Shown here: positions 32,984 to 54,772 of the stretch, piece after piece
How positions within the stretch are numbered: position 1 is the first letter of the stretch
Layout: each line of letters begins with the position of its first letter
Origin: a virus
Lineage: Duplodnaviria > Heunggongvirae > Uroviricota > Caudoviricetes
Length of the DNA: 64,000 nt
Virus record (IMG/VR): IMGVR_UViG_3300014204_000107
Location: 43,468-107,467 of that record
Direction: 5' to 3' (one strand)
Made by a program: the position numbers and the translations under genes
Notes under the pieces: generated by a model
The model's database searches: none
Seen by the model: the letters and a program-made list of their open reading frames with translations, nothing else
Told to the model about the DNA's origin: nothing

Positions 32984-33034
32984 TCTTAATCCTATCTGAT
33001 TAAGTGGTGGAGGCCAGAAACAGCCCCAACGGTA

Positions 33035-33107
33035 GCATAGGTAGATTTAATTGGTAAAATCCCTTCATTTTAGGAGGAAGATGGTGGTTCGATTCCACCT
33101 CTATGCA
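33035..33107 (+). tRNA. tRNA-Lys (anticodon UUU), no encoded CCA
   Basis: 7-bp acceptor (GCATAGG/TCTATGC), D-arm GATT/AATC with GG loop, anticodon loop AUUUUAG (U33, A37), T-arm GGTGG-TTCGATT-CCACC; N26 register ambiguous. Confidence 0.55.
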
Positions 33108-33136
33108 CAAACAATAAACAATTTAAAAACTGCACG

Positions 33137-33355
33137 ATGAAAAAATGTAAAATATTTTTGAGGTCAGATTCAACTATAATACAAGATGATATTAATAAAT
33201 GGATTAGTGCAAACAATATTGATATTGATAGTTGTGAAGTGCTTCAAAGTTGCATGGCAAATTATATTGTCATTTCAATTTGGTATAATTACTACAAGCA
33301 GGATGTTAAATTAGAAGTAATGTGCGACACAGAAGCATTTCCAAACCTTTCATAA
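33137..33355 (+). CDS. small hypothetical protein
   Basis: ORF. Confidence 0.35.
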   Translation: MKKCKIFLRSDSTIIQDDINKWISANNIDIDSCEVLQSCMANYIVISIWYNYYKQDVKLEVMCDTEAFPNLS

Positions 33356-33372
33356 CAACCAATTACGCTTAA

Positions 33373-33588
33373 CTAACGGTAAATATAATTAAAATGCGTT
33401 GTGTCGCCAACTAAATGCACACTATCAATATCTAATTGATTCATGGGTATGTATGGAATATGCATGTTATAATGATAATCATATACATAGATTGAGCTGG
33501 GCAATGGCTTTTTGCAATATACAATGTATAATTTATCAGAACAGGATGTGAATAATAGCAGTAATATTAAAATATATTTTTTTATCAT
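33373..33588 (-). CDS. possible small lipoprotein (MIKKYILILLLLFTSC)
   Basis: Signal/lipobox-like N-terminus; isolated minus-strand ORF in AT-rich gap. Confidence 0.25.
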   Translation of the reverse strand: MIKKYILILLLLFTSCSDKLYIVYCKKPLPSSIYVYDYHYNMHIPYIPMNQLDIDSVHLVGDTTHFNYIYR

Positions 33589-33768
33589 AAGTTTCTAACA
33601 ATATGTATATCAATATTAAAATTAATTATAATATTGCGTTGATCAGCAAAACTTAATTAGACGTATTTTAACACGATCTGACAAGCTCAAAATAGAAGAT
33701 GATACCTAATACTTATTCAAATAGAACGTCGAGCATATCTAACCAAACAGTCCCAAAATCAAATTGAA

Positions 33769-34065
33769 ATGGAATTATATTACATAGATTACGAAACCAA
33801 GATTTATCCTTGTACTTGCCATGACTGTGCGTTAATGGTAGATACCTTTGAAGTTGGAGGAATTAAGGAGGTTGAGTTTACATTCATGAAAACAACCAAC
33901 AATGAATACAAAGAAGGTTGGCTGAAAAGAGTTAAATCAATTATTAAGTATTTGCGTACAGGAAAGCTGGAAGGACCGGTTGTTAGTCTCACGTGCGAGA
34001 AAGCTGAAGAATTAAATAAACAATTACAGCAGTTCATTGAATGTAAAGTAACTACTGTAAAATAG
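33769..34065 (+). CDS. hypothetical protein
   Basis: ORF. Confidence 0.4.
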   Translation: MELYYIDYETKIYPCTCHDCALMVDTFEVGGIKEVEFTFMKTTNNEYKEGWLKRVKSIIKYLRTGKLEGPVVSLTCEKAEELNKQLQQFIECKVTTVK

Positions 34066-38274: not shown

Positions 38275-39180
38275 ATGACAACAACAGAATTAAAAACTAT
38301 TTTATCTAATCATAAATTATGGTTAAATGGTAAAAAAAATGGAGTTTGTGCCGATTTAGGAGGTGTTGATTTAAGCGGTGCTAATTTAAGCAATGCTAAT
38401 TTAAGATATGCTAATTTACGCGGTGCTAATTTAAGCTATGCTAATTTAAGATGTGCTAATTTAAGCGGTGCTAATTTAAGCGGTGCTAATTTAAGCAATG
38501 CTAATTTACGCGGTGCTAATTTAAGCAATGCTAATTTAAGCAATGCTAATTTACGCGGTGCTGATTTAAGCGGTGCTGATTTAAGCGATGCTGATTTAAG
38601 CAATGCTGATTTAAGCAATGCTGATTTAAGCAATGCTGATTTAAGCAATGCTGATTTAAGCAATGCTGATTTAAGCAATGCTGATTTAAGCAATGCTAAT
38701 TTAAGCGGTGCTAATTTAAGCGGTGCTAATTTAGGCGGTGCTGATTTAAGCGGTGCTAATTTACGCGGTGCTAATTTACGCGGTGCTAATTTAAGATATA
38801 CTAATTTAAGCGGTGCTAATTTAAGCAATGCTAATTTACAAAATATTTTAATTAATGAATTATCAGCGTTCATACCATTATCGTGCCCCGAGGAAGGAAG
38901 TTTTATTGCATTTAAAACCGCGCAGAATCATATTATTAAATTATTAATACCAGAAGACGCAAAACGGAGTTCGGCAACATCATATAAATGTAGAGCATCA
39001 AAGGCAAAAGTACTTGAAATTAGTGATGAACTATCAAGCATACAATCTGATTATGATAACAACTTTGTCTATGCTGTTGGTGAAACAATTGAAGTAGATA
39101 ATTTTGATGAGTGTAGATGGAATGAATGCTCAACTGGAATACACTTTTTTATGTCTAAAGAACTTGCAAGGCAATATTAA
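38275..39180 (+). CDS. pentapeptide-repeat protein (about 35 A[ND]L[SR]xA repeats) with C-terminal globular domain
   Basis: Tandem pentapeptide repeats; N-terminal [13 protein letters not shown] shared with 15698. Confidence 0.65.
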
Positions 39181-41809: not shown

Positions 41810-42103
41810 ATGCAATGGTTTGTTTATATAGTAGAATGCAATGATAATACCTTATATACAGGTATAACTAACAATATAGAGCTGCGCATACAAAAGCATA
41901 ATACAAAAAAAGGAGCAAAATATACGAAAGCAAGACTGCCAGTCAAACTAATATATAATCAAGAGTGTGCAAGCAAATCGGCAGCCCTAAAAGAAGAATA
42001 TAGAATCAAGCAACTAACAAAAAAGGAAAAGCTAGAATTAATAAGAAATTGCAACCAAACAACCCCAATATATGAACAAGGCAGTACAAATAACAATTAT
42101 TGA
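41810..42103 (+). CDS. GIY-YIG nuclease-domain protein (small stand-alone, YIVECNDNTLYTGITNN…R…H…KGAKYT)
   Basis: GIY…YIG core with conserved R, H, and KGAKYT. Confidence 0.55.
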   Translation: MQWFVYIVECNDNTLYTGITNNIELRIQKHNTKKGAKYTKARLPVKLIYNQECASKSAALKEEYRIKQLTKKEKLELIRNCNQTTPIYEQGSTNNNY

Positions 42104-42290
42104 AACAGAAGACTGGACATCCAGCACTCCAATAGGTAGGTATATTGTTATAGTAAAAGTAACACCAGAATTTATGCAGGAGCCAGAACATATTGTGAGC
42201 CACAGTGAAAAGGCAGAATATATAGCGCAAGAAATTAAAGAAGAATTCTTAAAGAAATTGCAACCGAGCAAGCCAACTACCACATATTAA
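42072..42290 (+). CDS. small hypothetical protein
   Basis: ORF. Confidence 0.35.
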   Translation: MNKAVQITIIETEDWTSSTPIGRYIVIVKVTPEFMQEPEHIVSHSEKAEYIAQEIKEEFLKKLQPSKPTTTY

Positions 42291-43005
42291 TAAAAACCTA
42301 GAAATTGCAACCAAACTATATAATTTGGAAATTGCAACCAATTACCTAATATACAATAAGGTAATAATATTATAGCAAATAACTAAATACCAAGAAATTG
42401 CAACCAACAAGAATTTGCAACCAACCAACTAATCCATACCGTATAAATGACAGTAGGTAAATAGTACAAATAGCCTGCTCCAGAAATTGCAACCAACGTA
42501 AAAATCAATAGGTTGGGGAGACGGAGGACGGTGTCTGGCTTGACTGTGCATCTTTATTCAAGCGTCTACCTAATAAGACCACGACCGACCTAACCATTTA
42601 AATTGCATAACCAGTTTTAGCTGTTACGCATATAGCGGTAACCACATAGCAATAATGTCGCGGATGCATATTATTCTTCCAGCCTAATTGCAGTAGGTAG
42701 CTCGTGTTTCTTCCATATGTTATATTATACGCTATATCTATTACACTAAATAGAACGTAATAGTTTGCGTTATTGCTATAGGTGTCCTGCACCCATCCCG
42801 GAATAGATTATTCCTCGGTGTCTGCACATTGCGTTAAGTTGCTTTAATTGTGTTAGAAAACTGCGTCTTTCATACTGTTGTTCTATTGTATAAGGTAAAG
42901 GTAGGAAGAATAGTTGAGATACACAAATTTAATTTTATGCTTCGTTAGTGTTGCTTGGTGTAGGTTTATATAGTGCTATAGAAGCATAGCAGATAGATTT
43001 GGTAG

Positions 43006-43045
43006 AGTGGTATATTATTCCTATATTTGTATATAACAAAATTAA
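43006..43045 (+). promoter_or_regulatory. variant of the recurring TTTGGTAG…TTT…TATAACAA promoter/leader motif
   Basis: Motif similarity; precedes ATG 43054. Confidence 0.35.
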
Positions 43046-43053
43046 CCAAACAA

Positions 43054-43293
43054 ATGAAAGTAAAAGTTGAAGAAACGGGTAAACCCGTATTGATCCCAAT
43101 GTGTGATATGGAACCTGGGCAAATGGCAGTTGTTGTTGACGATATGGCCGGCGACAATAACAGAGACTCTATTATACTGCGCACAGAGAAAGCAATAGCT
43201 GACTTTATGGACCCTTTGCTCGATTGGGAAATAGACTGTGAATTCAAAGTGAGAATCCTTCCCAAAGGCACCAAGATTGAAATTACTGCATAA
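43054..43293 (+). CDS. small protein, tandem paralogue family member 1 (MKVKVEETGKPVLIPM…ILRTEKAIADF…LPKGTKIEITA)
   Basis: Four tandem paralogues. Confidence 0.4.
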   Translation: MKVKVEETGKPVLIPMCDMEPGQMAVVVDDMAGDNNRDSIILRTEKAIADFMDPLLDWEIDCEFKVRILPKGTKIEITA

Positions 43294-43310
43294 CAAATTA
43301 ACCCAAACAA

Positions 43311-43550
43311 ATGAAAGTAAAAATTAAAGGAGAGGCTAAACCCGCATTGATCCCAATGTATGAAATGGTGCGTGGCCAGATCGCTAGAATTGTTGATACG
43401 TGCGCCGATAGTTATAACGGTTCTATCGTATTACGCAGTGAGAAAACTATTGTCGATTTAAAATCTCATCACGTAGATTGGTGCATGACATGCACTTATA
43501 AAGTAGAACTGTTGCCAGCCGGCACGGTCATTGAATTAACCGTTGAATAA
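43311..43550 (+). CDS. tandem paralogue 2
   Basis: Shared MKVKIKGEAKPALIPM…VLRSEKTIVDL…LLPAGTVIELTV. Confidence 0.4.
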   Translation: MKVKIKGEAKPALIPMYEMVRGQIARIVDTCADSYNGSIVLRSEKTIVDLKSHHVDWCMTCTYKVELLPAGTVIELTVE

Positions 43551-43558
43551 AAAAAAAT

Positions 43559-43798
43559 ATGAAAGCAAAAATAGTAAAAGAGGCTGCGCCTGCAGTCATG
43601 AAGATGAATGAACTTAAACCAGGACAGGTCGCTAAGATCAATGACCCTGATATTGGCCCCCACCATATGGGCAAAGTTATACTACGGACACAGCATTCAT
43701 TGGTTGATTTAGATGATCCAATTATAGATTTCTGCTTAGGAGCCGGTTGGGATGTAGAATTGCTCCCCGCTGGGACGGTTATCAAAATTACAGTCTAA
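43559..43798 (+). CDS. tandem paralogue 3
   Basis: Shared motifs. Confidence 0.4.
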   Translation: MKAKIVKEAAPAVMKMNELKPGQVAKINDPDIGPHHMGKVILRTQHSLVDLDDPIIDFCLGAGWDVELLPAGTVIKITV

Positions 43799-43866
43799 CT
43801 GATAAACGCAAGAAAAATGAATACAATCAAAGTTAAAAGACCCAAGGAACTTGTGCGGGACAAAAA

Positions 43867-44064
43867 ATGAAAATTGGCAAATTTGGCCAGATTAAAGAGG
43901 GATTTTATAAAGACCATATTGTATTGCGTGCTGATAGCAGCATATGGATTGATTTGACAGACCCGGAATACAATTGGACTAATGGCATTACATATCCTGT
44001 TGACGCACGGATATTGCTGGTTGGCACCACACTTGAGTTGGTTATTGGTAATAGTGCCATCTAA
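43867..44064 (+). CDS. tandem paralogue 4 (divergent, shorter)
   Basis: HIVLRADSSIWIDL…LLVGTTLELVIG resembles the family C-terminus. Confidence 0.35.
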   Translation: MKIGKFGQIKEGFYKDHIVLRADSSIWIDLTDPEYNWTNGITYPVDARILLVGTTLELVIGNSAI

Positions 44065-45034
44065 GCATTAGTGCTAATTCGATTTTTTATTTTTGGAAGA
44101 CTATATATTATAGAATAGGGTATCTGTGGTATTATACCAGCGCACCTTAATGCTAAGCTATCGTTAAGGGTTAATGCGGGTACATAAAGAGGCTAGCGAA
44201 TGCCATTACGCTATATTAATGTTGCCGTAACAGCGGGTGCGTTAGTCCTGCTCGGGCCGTTGGTAGACAGGCGAAACGTTTTTTGTAGTGTGGCGGCTAT
44301 AAATCGTATGGGGCCAGACTTAGATACGCTGGTTGCAGATCTAAGCATATACCACATTTAATGGGTGGCTTTATTATTTGGTAAGCAGGGTTGCCAGCCT
44401 TGTATGTTGCATATAATCATTGAAATATGCTAGTGTAACTCATGCAAGCAATGAGGTTTAGGTATAGCATGGCTACCAACTGTGTATGTTGCGCGTATAA
44501 CATTTATAAAACGTGATAGTTTGCATGTTTGCTCGATAAAACATTGCATATACATTGCGCTAGCTGCATGAATTTTGAATCATCGGCTAGATATTTCTGT
44601 CTTTGGTCGTTGCATAATATGCTATAAAATACTATACACAATAGATTTATAGTTTAGAAGGGGTATTGGATATATTTTCGGCAAAATTTCTTAAAAAATA
44701 TGATAATAAAAACTCAGGGCGCGCGGATATTTTTACTCATATAAGATAGTTCCTATGCTCGATTTGAATAGTATTTAGTGTGCGCATATAGCCGATATGG
44801 GAAAATAATCAAATAATTTCATTTCGCGGGATTTTTAATACTGTTGGTATATGTGCTTCGGTATTTGCTGGATTGCTACAGATATTTAGAAAAGTTTGAT
44901 AAAAAAATGCCATGGTCGATAAAAATTAATTCGAGCGTTCTTATTGCGTTATATAATAGAATCGAAGTTATGGTTGGCGCGTGGCTGTATGCGTACGCAT
45001 GTGCGTGTACATATAATATAGGTGCACCAAAAAT

Positions 45035-45085
45035 AATTTGGTATTCTGGTATAATTTACTTACCTTTATTCTATAACAATAAAAG
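45035..45085 (+). promoter_or_regulatory. recurring promoter/leader motif (TTTGGTAT…CTTACCTTTATTCTATAACAATAAA)
   Basis: Motif; precedes ATG 45095. Confidence 0.45.
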
Positions 45086-45094
45086 ACAATTTAA

Positions 45095-45341
45095 TATGAA
45101 AACAAATTTTAGACCTATTTACGAAATTGCTCGCGAGATAAGGAGTGATTGGAAAAACGTATATTATGGCGCCGTGCCATATTTGGATGCTATGCGTTCC
45201 ATAACAAACATAACCGATGCTTATTATGCTGACTCAGCAAAAAGCGTTGTGTTGTATTTCCTTGCCAATGCCAATACCTGGAAAGGTGAGGTTGCTCGCA
45301 GAATTAAGAAAGAATTAAATGATATGTGCAAATACAGGTAA
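45095..45341 (+). CDS. small hypothetical protein
   Basis: Start chosen downstream of promoter motif (ORF-track ORF begins 44844). Confidence 0.35.
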
Positions 45342-45412
45342 TTAGATCTGCTCGACGTTCTTTTTATAACTATATTGGTATATAAACAAGTATGAACGTC
45401 GAGCAGATCTAA
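45342..45412 (+). repeat. 19-bp perfect inverted repeat (TTAGATCTGCTCGACGTTC / GAACGTCGAGCAGATCTAA) with 33-nt loop; the right arm matches the 21-nt motif GAACGTCGAGCAGATCTAACC
   Basis: Read directly; starts one base after stop codon of 45095-45341. Confidence 0.6.
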
Positions 45413-45653: not shown

Positions 45654-45703
45654 AATTAGGTAGGTTGAGAATTTCTTCCTACCTTTATCTTGTAACAATA
45701 AAT
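45654..45703 (+). promoter_or_regulatory. recurring promoter/leader motif
   Basis: TTAGGTAGGTTGAGAATTTCTTCCTACCTTTATCTTGTAACAATAAA before ATG 45715. Confidence 0.45.
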
Positions 45704-45714
45704 AAATAAAAAAC

Positions 45715-46698
45715 ATGAAAACAAATTCAGTTAACGATTACGTTAGCTTTCTTCGCAAGAATGCTCCAACTTCCTTTTCGGAACGTGCGCTCAATAAGTA
45801 TGTATATGGAATTGAAATTGCAGATGGCGGCACGTACAAGAAATATAAAGAATTGTTAAGACGTGCAGTAAGTAAGGGATTGGTTGAAGTTATTCATGTT
45901 ACCGGAAAACGCCACAGGCTCGAATATAAATTTTCGACACAACCTTTGATCATGCCCAATTTTAGACACAGGGTGATGGAAATCCTTGGACTCAGGTATG
46001 GCGCGTATCTCAGTGTGTTTTCAGACCGGCGCAAGGGCAACAGGTTCCGTGTTAAGTTTTGGAATGAAGATGCTACTCCTGCACAAATGAACGAAATTGA
46101 GAAGTTAAGCAAGCATGTTAAGAAAGTCTATAGGTACAGTGGTTCGCTGTGTATCGTGCTTGATTGCAGAATGCGTGACTTAATTAATTACAATGATACA
46201 TATATTACGCGTCTGGAACTGAGGGCAATGGTAACATACATTCCTGGTAATTGTTCACCTCTCCCGGCAAAGAAAGCTGAACCTGTAGATAAATTTGACT
46301 TTTTGAAGAAAGCACATGCAGAAGGCAAAACCATTGAACTGTATTTTGGAGAAAAATGGCAAACCATTCTAAACCCATTATTTGATGATGACTTCTGCAA
46401 CTATCGCATTAAGTCAGATGATAAATTTGCTGACTTACAGAAAGCGTATGATGCCGGGGATAAAATTGAAGTTTTGCTCTTAGATGGTACTTGGTGTGAT
46501 ATTGTAGAACCAGGTTGGTCGCCAGAATACAAATATCGTGTTAAGACAGCACCAAAAAACATGCCTAAATCCGTTGCTAAAAGCAAAGAAAGCATCCTTG
46601 AAGAAATTGAACTGTTGGTAAAACAATTGCCAAAAGGCACTACTTGCAGACTGGTTCTCCCCGTTACTACAATTGCAACATATAATTATACATCATAA
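45715..46698 (+). CDS. hypothetical protein; C-terminus paralogous to 46907-47473
   Basis: Shared …EI(E/K)…VK(Q/R)LP(K/V)GTT… C-terminal block. Confidence 0.45.
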   Translation: MKTNSVNDYVSFLRKNAPTSFSERALNKYVYGIEIADGGTYKKYKELLRRAVSKGLVEVIHVTGKRHRLEYKFSTQPLIMPNFRHRVMEILGLRYGAYLSVFSDRRKGNRFRVKFWNEDATPAQMNEIEKLSKHVKKVYRYSGSLCIVLDCRMRDLINYNDTYITRLELRAMVTYIPGNCSPLPAKKAEPVDKFDFLKKAHAEGKTIELYFGEKWQTILNPLFDDDFCNYRIKSDDKFADLQKAYDAGDKIEVLLLDGTWCDIVEPGWSPEYKYRVKTAPKNMPKSVAKSKESILEEIELLVKQLPKGTTCRLVLPVTTIATYNYTS

Positions 46699-53819: not shown

Positions 53820-53843
53820 AGCAATAAAAATATTCTTTAAGGT

Positions 53844-53885
53844 ATTTGGTGGTTTGAGAAATTATTCCTAACTTTACCTTGTTGT
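53844..53885 (+). promoter_or_regulatory. recurring promoter motif (variant) with no ORF downstream; faces the 53.9-54.75 kb ORF-free island
   Basis: TTTGGTGGTTTGAGAAATTATTCCTAACTTTACCTTG. Confidence 0.4.
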
Positions 53886-53889
53886 TTTG

Positions 53890-54720
53890 GACGAAATACT
53901 GTCCAGAACCTATAATCCCGGAAAAGGCAATATTGCCGCAAAACTTAGATTGTTTATACACCATTTAAAAGGAGGACGCAATGGAACCACCCGGTTAGTT
54001 TAGCTTTATATATTATTATTTTATTTTGATCTTTGACATCTTGTGAATTAGTAGGTTACCATGTAGTGCTCATACTTGAATGCTTTACATACGTCCCTCG
54101 CCTCCCTGTTGTATCGTGGTTTGACCGCCATTGTTGGCCACTTTGGTTCCGATAACTGTATGAACTTCATAGACGCATACGCTTTCTGTTGTCCATAGTT
54201 CTTGGCACGCATGGAAATAACCTATTAGCTTGGATTGGCGCTGTTACTATTCCGAAATGGTAACGGGGCCTTAACAAGCACCAGTGCATAATATGCGCGT
54301 TCTCGTAAGTGCAGCCATTTATTTTCCGCCGGCCGCTCTACATTAGTAGCATGGGACCGAGCTCCGTGGCCGAATCGAGTTAAATAGCTACGCATATATG
54401 TATTGCCAGAGTGGCTGGTACCCCACTCACTCAGTTTGCTTGTAGGGAAGTAAAACCTGCAAGGTACCACATTCCGAGAAAAGGCAATACACACTGGTTT
54501 TCACGAGTGTTGATACATCTAACCCTGCCGGGGCCTAATAAAGTGGCCTTTGGTGGGGTTTTCTGTTTTAGATCGATTCTTATGACTATTTTATAGTAGA
54601 TGATGTCAGGTATGTGGTTTATATGAACGTCGAGCAGACCTCACCATTTTGATTCAAATCCAACTTTACAGATATTGGTTAGAACCAAATACTACAAACA
54701 GTATTGCAATCTAAGCAATA
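53890..54720 (+). ncRNA. ORF-free GC-elevated island directly downstream of a promoter motif; candidate large structured ncRNA
   Basis: No + strand ORF of 60 aa or more in 830 nt of an otherwise gene-dense genome; only short - strand junk ORFs; local GC clearly above flanks. Confidence 0.3.
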
Positions 54721-54725
54721 AAATA

Positions 54726-54772
54726 TATTTGGTAGTTTGATATAATTTACTTACCTTTACATATAAACAATA
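54726..54772 (+). promoter_or_regulatory. recurring promoter/leader motif
   Basis: TTTGGTAGTTTGATATAATTTACTTACCTTTACATATAAACAATAA before ATG 54779. Confidence 0.45.

Follow-up and report, generated by a model that had tools for sequence, protein, structure and literature searches.

A long ORF-free intergenic region with a predicted promoter at its downstream end in an uncultured jumbo phage

A region of 1031 nt without long open reading frames (positions 44065-45095, hereafter island 2) has been analyzed within a window of 64,000 nucleotides, the whole stretch of DNA under study, which belongs to an uncultured jumbo phage of ~299 kb (ENA ERZ27247350, k141_2421633). The island separates the stop codon of a 65-aa gene from the start codon of an 81-aa gene and is best read as an ordinary, if long, intergenic region; the only unusual thing about it is the length of the gap for a phage genome. 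About an even chance is given to the reading that it is an intergenic spacer specific to this lineage, lying between two of the phage's transcription units and probably made of eroded DNA. A promoter (45037-45068) with its short leader is the sole recognisable functional part and fills merely the last ~60 nt. The spacer proper (44065-45036, 972 nt) lacks ORFs of at least 60 aa, phage-class promoters, terminators, repeats and significant RNA structure, and no homology was found for it in the searches described below. These other ~970 nt would most likely represent eroded sequence of a former accessory gene or a recombination scar within a fast-turnover block of small ORFan genes.

The first-pass annotation had described an island of 0.8 kb, in which the + strand has no ORF of at least 60 aa from 44065 to 44843. 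The gap does exist, and such ORFs are absent from that interval on both strands, although its length was underestimated, as it continues to 45095. Its longest ORFs encode 53 aa on the + strand (44200-44361) and 48, 45 and 41 aa on the - strand. The proposed non-coding nature of the region was supported by a frame-specific Markov model, in which all ORFs of the island scored negative (-0.17 to -0.26 bits/codon), compared with +0.10 to +0.24 bits/codon for the neighbouring genes of 60-82 aa. Since each frame is expected to have ~25 stop codons and the individual frames have 14-33, an ORF-free kilobase corresponds to random expectation at such composition. Recoding of stop codons (reassignment of TAG or TGA) was rejected because TAA, TAG and TGA are all present in six of six frames. 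The island is identical in three independent assemblies (ENA, JGI and Logan) and is thus not an assembly artefact; over the 42-47 kb region the Logan assembly is 100% identical, and the JGI contig carries two substitutions, both within a paralog gene. Nearly all genes of the window lie on the + strand, and its coding density is ~80-85% according to a crude gene model.

Downstream of the island, the 81-aa gene (45096-45341, + strand) was assigned to family phrog_13953 (PHROG E 1.1e-26), with 1643 homologues at E <= 1e-10, mostly of 74-90 aa. The suspicion raised at first pass that the ORF listed at 44844 really starts after the promoter motif proved correct, with the ATG at 45096 and the PHROG match covering residues 4-79 of the 81-aa form. 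Counted from the start of the -7 box, this ATG is 35 nt downstream, and an equal spacing separates the promoter at 45680 from the gene at 45715. The in-frame extension (44907-45095, + strand), which two pipelines fused with the gene into a 144-aa product, is not part of it: no PHROG match was detected within this N-terminal extension, whose coding score was -0.02 bits/codon when excluded from training. The idea that the island is an intron splitting the phrog_13953 gene was discarded, because the upstream 65-aa ORF has no match to phrog_13953, not even to the profile's missing N-terminal part, and the homologues are complete at 74-90 aa. In addition, this abundant and unannotated family has members in many phage contigs from fresh water and soil, of which two besides the present one are larger than 200 kb.

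The promoter of the 81-aa gene (45037-45068, + strand) consists of a -33 TTTG box, 20 nt and a -7 box TACCTTTA; it was recovered by the generic scan and has a PWM score of 57.3. It is predicted to be of the Bacteroidota type, as its TTTG and TAnnTTTG boxes lie within the 19-21 nt spacing range and upstream of a gene start. With the PWM, 13 strong + strand copies of the extended motif, this one included, were found from 43.0 to 61.7 kb, together with two weaker copies at 8.5 and 26.0 kb and one - strand copy at 42903. The geometry of Bacteroidota sigma-A promoters (-33 TTTG / -7 TAnnTTTG) is matched by this site and 12 sister sites within 42-62 kb, and the lack of Shine-Dalgarno sequences in most genes here is another likeness. 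In contrast to sigma-A promoters, the -7 box of most phage copies ends in A instead of G, and the phage motif is extended to ~45 conserved nt (ATTTGGTAG..GAGAAATT.TTCCTACCTTTATTCTATAACAA), a sequence pattern that suggests a putative phage-specific, co-regulated promoter class. The same promoter type was also observed in a distantly related phage contig (L007, 5803-5915), followed by a G/C-rich, ORF-free segment of ~70 nt that adjoins the upstream side of the 81-aa homologue's own promoter and may be a small RNA. Directly after the 81-aa gene, an inverted repeat with perfectly matching 19-bp arms and a 33-nt loop was found (45342-45412; folding z = -4.9 on the + strand and -7.7 on the - strand). 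It is formed by the box GAACGTCGAGCAnAnCTnACC pairing with itself; three + strand copies of this box are present (33724-33743, 45342-45412 and 54625-54644) versus 0.05 expected, and the ATGs at 33769 and 45448 follow it at a distance of 45-55 nt. This conserved box may bind a protein or define a second class of promoters or regulatory sites.

On the upstream side, the tandem paralog cluster reported at first pass is real and comprises four members according to protein alignment, encoding 80, 79, 79 and 65 aa (43054-44064, + strand; promoter at 42998-43029, last stop codon at 44062-44064). They are 33-47% identical to the first member, share 10 invariant columns and all have positive coding scores. 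The terminator scan called no terminator-like site in island 2. A weak 4-bp hairpin (AGCA/TGCT) with TTTTTTATTTTT 7 nt later can be read from the sequence at 44066-44095 (+ strand), uncalled by the scan, and would at best be a leaky terminator of the paralog operon; by contrast, a canonical terminator with a 12-bp stem is present in the same phage at ~26541-26582. Because no real terminator follows the paralog operon, read-through transcription of the spacer is probable, and the spacer may be passively transcribed as the untranslated intercistronic tail of this operon. No internal promoter was detected in 44065-45036 on either strand (no PWM score >10 bits and no generic TTTG-N18-22-TAnnTTT[GA]), a result that covers the phage-class and generic Bacteroidota-class motifs, the sigma-70 scan being uninformative. 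An independent transcription unit was therefore rejected, as neither a promoter nor a terminator of its own was found in the phage and generic Bacteroidota promoter scans and the terminator scan.

DNA search of GenBank phages gave no match, and no relative with the same neighbourhood was found in any collection searched. Among the neighbouring proteins, the 327-aa protein is an ORFan among 5.8 billion proteins and has no relatives in IMG/VR; the 65-aa, 79-aa and 875-aa proteins also have none in IMG/VR, and the relatives found for the 875-aa protein are only 28-29% identical. Relatives of the 81-aa gene, up to 78% identical, have compact, unrelated surroundings and upstream regions. These observations place the spacer in a lineage-specific, high-turnover block. 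All other copies of island 2 are 100% identical to it, and no diverged homologue was found. Nothing specific was found in the literature on non-coding loci in Bacteroidota jumbo phages.

With regard to base composition, GC elevation is confined to 44117-44420 (46-48% GC), which also has a weak period-3 signal, and the description of the island as GC-elevated is inaccurate for its whole length (36.8-37.2% GC, compared with 37.6% in the 42-64 kb block and 34.6% across the window). Within this sub-segment, 44117-44341 has 48% GC, which is the 98.7th percentile of 225-nt windows. The remainder (44421-44906) is featureless and AT-rich (29-34% GC), and the 3' half of the island drops to 29% GC. A period-3 signal was detected in 44065-44420 (z = 2.3, p = 0.025) and was missing from 44420-44906 (z = -0.8), and none remained across the island overall. 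The weak period-3 signal and a codon-like ORF in the GC-richer first 350 nt are compatible with a faded coding relic. In addition, the island is richer in GC (37%) than four-fold sites (24-32%) and has a GC skew of the other sign (+0.22 versus -0.07 to -0.22). Island 2 is thus not at neutral equilibrium, and an argument from neutral-equilibrium composition fails. The G/C-rich strings quoted as palindromes at first pass are not so: GGGCGCGCGG holds merely the 6-bp palindrome GCGCGC, and GCGGGTGCGTTAGTCCTGCTCGGGCCG is non-palindromic.

Searches for a decayed gene were consistently negative. Six-frame translations of the island had no match in Pfam and a best E of 0.04 in PHROGs, which is not significant; tblastn against 50,697 phage genomes gave nothing, and no remnant of other ORFs from the window or from related loci was recognised. 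The frameshifted coding remnants that the first-pass annotation had set against a non-coding origin were hence not found with these surrogates of blastx (Pfam, PHROGs, tblastn and window ORFs). A six-frame concatenated query against the collection of 5.8 billion proteins also returned zero matches, yet it failed to recover the 53-aa and 144-aa proteins, both of which that collection contains, and was discarded. A decayed fifth copy of the upstream paralogs was rejected as well (HMM score of 1.6 bits versus a 95th percentile of 1.3 and a maximum of 7.9 among shuffles). The island may be a dead gene (a "decayed moron"); such a gene would have been eroded past recognition.

Searches for known RNA genes and for DNA-level elements did not reveal a function either. 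Rfam 15, which includes group I/II introns, GOLLD, ROOL, Y RNA/YrlA, tmRNA, 6S and riboswitches, gave no match in 44065-45095 at gathering thresholds, nor did its covariance models with permissive filters at E <= 10, and neither tRNA nor tmRNA was found in the island. When the 972-nt spacer was folded and compared with dinucleotide shuffles, z-scores were -0.63 for the + strand and -0.73 for the - strand, and 150-nt windows within 44075-44899 ranged from -0.4 to +1.8; elsewhere in the window, four sites stood out in the same test, and its positive controls (island 3, the sequence preceding the Ro60 gene and the 45342-45412 hairpin) reached z = -3.6 to -7.7. A structured RNA in island 2 was thus rejected on the basis of Rfam and of folding z-scores no better than shuffles. 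At the DNA level, no k-mer or motif was enriched after multiple-testing correction: GCATATA and TTGCATATAAT were rejected as repeated motifs, and GTTGCATATAAT-like sites were not enriched. The only repeat is an imperfect 27-nt direct repeat in two copies 82 nt apart (44384/44466) with 78% identity, which is near chance, and a replication origin or iteron array was rejected on the basis of this single imperfect two-copy repeat and the lack of enriched k-mers. The cumulative GC skew climbs monotonically through the island, uninterrupted by any inflection. A 12-bp palindrome ATGCGTACGCAT (44989-45000) and GGTGCACC (45021-45028) closely precede the promoter; ~26 palindromes of 12 bp and any composition are expected by chance in 64 kb, and the scan found five with at least 40% GC. 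Their role as operators was dismissed, since the 12-bp palindrome is within chance expectation.

Several other explanations should be weighed against an eroded spacer. It is possible, though rather unlikely, that island 2 specifies a functional but weakly structured RNA, such as a long intercistronic leader, a 3' UTR or a regulatory transcript of the sponge or antisense type, produced by read-through of the paralog operon or from an unrecognised promoter class. The stretch is probably transcribed, because no terminator lies between the promoter at 42998 and the island; its + strand is G+U-rich with a folding energy far below that of the - strand (-258 versus -187 kcal/mol), its composition departs from four-fold-site equilibrium, and other gaps in this phage resemble RNA genes. 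However, it folds no better than shuffles on both strands, has no Rfam match and no promoter or terminator of its own that could be found, and showed no conservation anywhere it was searched for. In size (0.6-1 kb), lack of ORFs and phage context, it is similar to GOLLD, ROOL, Y RNAs and group I/II introns, and a Ro60 orthologue is encoded 17 kb upstream; the island differs from all of these in the absence of a covariance-model match, of a thermodynamic structure signal and of a flanking split gene. A broader version, in which this lineage-specific stretch has a function as a long RNA or DNA element of low intrinsic structure (for example a decoy/sponge transcript or a regulatory intercistronic spacer) and is one of several non-coding loci, is considered improbable. 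An element acting as DNA, such as a replication origin, a packaging or recombination site or a protein-binding array, appears even slightly less probable: the GC-richer segment adjoining one of 29-30% GC, the 27-nt repeat and the palindromes upstream of the promoter are compatible with it, whereas the lack of iterons or enriched motifs, the near-chance level of the two-copy repeat and the monotonic skew are not, and island 1, with its seven copies of AGAAATTGCAACCAA, is a much better candidate for an origin or operator.

The 53-aa ORF (MPLRYINVAVTAGALVLLGPLV..., 44200-44361, + strand), called a gene by one annotation pipeline, is probably not a gene, or a relic. There is a small chance that it is a real gene for a small hydrophobic, possibly membrane, protein, the remainder of the island being untranslated flanks. 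It was predicted by the gene callers of one or two pipelines, has AGAGG 7 nt upstream of its ATG, a coding-like codon-position composition (G1 0.37, T2 0.41) and an 18-residue hydrophobic stretch, and lies where the local period-3 z is 2.3. Nevertheless, its coding score of -0.17 bits/codon ranks within the lowest quarter of small + strand ORFs, its start codon lies in G/C-rich sequence whereas neighbouring genes have A-rich starts, it has no promoter, and it accounts for only 162 of the 1031 nt. An exhaustive phmmer search of 1.84 billion representative proteins recovered no homologue except itself and one dubious match, a protein with 11 fibronectin-type-III (FN3) repeats (E 2.4e-4). This match might be taken to mean that the GC-rich segment is a pseudogene fragment corresponding to the C-terminal half of an FN3 domain, as the ORF matches the F-G strand motif (LxGPLxxxxxYxCxVxAxNxxG), although such an origin is highly improbable. 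The match is a single one whose score is summed over repeats of 20-27 bits each, the Pfam fn3 model and all other Pfam models are silent at E <= 10, and only profile positions 61-89 of 97 are aligned, so that the N-terminal half would fall inside the upstream gene; the shuffle control for this match is circular because its profile was built from the selected match itself. The FN3 match is regarded as a weak lead only.

The first-pass annotation had also proposed that three islands in the motif-driven block form a family of non-coding elements. This was not supported: pairwise blastn (word size 7) found copies of the promoter motif as the only sequence in common, and island 2 lacks the internal promoter, repeats and structure that distinguish islands 1 and 3, so the three are not a family. 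Island 2 is one of five gaps of at least 750 nt in the window, two of which, of ~750 nt each (25919-26669 and 32984-33768), are located outside the motif block. Island 1 (42291-43044) contains a leftward promoter back-to-back with the rightward one driving the paralogs. This leftward promoter is the window's sole - strand promoter motif (-7 box at 42903) and points opposite to the + strand promoter at 42998-43029; no convincing ORF and no fold signal (z = -0.6) were found for the leftward unit. The seven copies of AGAAATTGCAACCAA are distributed over 42043-42500, the first of them inside a GIY-YIG-like gene region, and island 1 may be an operator or iteron array or an origin. Island 3 (53820-54769) has its own promoter at the start (53845-53876), followed by ~700 nt without an ORF, and ends in a terminator-like hairpin and U-run at ~54528-54572. 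Its + strand shows a significant fold signal over 53883-54580 (z = -3.63, 0 of 20 shuffles) and at 54200-54319 (z = -4.05). No Rfam or Pfam match was obtained, and island 3 is a candidate for a novel phage non-coding RNA of ~0.7 kb. An SD-preceded mini-ORF of five codons (MEPPG-stop) starts at 53981 in this island.

Further loci of the window were recorded along with the gaps. A Ro60/TROVE orthologue is encoded at 26670-28118 (Pfam TROVE 69.9 bits, with a Ro60 vWA domain). The 751-nt ORF-poor gap upstream of it contains strongly structured stretches on the + strand (26480-26659, z = -4.7) and on the - strand (26000-26119, z = -4.75), among which is the terminator at ~26541-26582; it has no Rfam match and is possibly a Y-RNA-like partner. 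For a tRNA gene at 33035-33108 (Rfam 42.6 bits), the Rfam alignment shows an anticodon loop of 6 nt (AUUUUA) and ARAGORN reported 'tRNA-???' with a 2-base anticodon; a one-base slip of the stem would yield a 7-nt loop with the anticodon UUU. The sequence at ~400-465, ahead of the gene at 490, resembles the T-arm and acceptor end of a tRNA (GGGGTTCGAATCCCTC...ATCGAGCA); it was called by neither ARAGORN nor Rfam and may be a truncated or degenerate tRNA. In addition, the window encodes a NAD-salvage pair, namely a ribose-phosphate pyrophosphokinase-like protein (57163-58095) and a nicotinamide phosphoribosyltransferase (59149-60687, PHROG E 1e-163), with an endonuclease VII gene between the two, and a pentapeptide-repeat protein (38275-39180).

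Among known systems, an eroded spacer has its closest counterparts in the hyperplastic regions of large phages, where long intergenic spacers are known, for example in the early-gene regions of T4-like and jumbo phages packed with small ORFans. Island 2 is alike in lying within a block of small, co-oriented and mostly ORFan genes with their own strong host-type promoters per gene, and in its lineage specificity, with no detectable homologues; it differs in its length, 1 kb being long for a phage intergenic region, and in that five such gaps occur here. Certain points count against an eroded spacer. Phages usually purge useless DNA, and the GC content and GC skew of the island are off the four-fold-site values. 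Furthermore, at least three of the other four gaps look functional, one having iteron-like repeats, another a structured RNA with its own promoter, and a third a structured region ahead of the Ro60 gene, so island 2 might be functional by analogy. A spacer with no function of its own, eroded from older coding DNA, would nevertheless remain the reading that we prefer.

For annotation of this phage, the 81-aa gene should be started at 45096, rather than at 44844 or 44907, and the 53-aa call should be treated as doubtful. The analysis removes a false lead, as the three islands are no repeat family and neither a hidden gene nor a structured RNA was detected in island 2. Among the non-coding loci of this phage, islands 3 and 1 and the sequence preceding the Ro60 orthologue hold more promise. 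If island 2 were, after all, a functional element among several such loci, this would mean that the jumbo phage invests unusually heavily in non-coding sequence, together with the island 3 RNA, the Ro60 gene with its structured upstream region and the odd tRNA.
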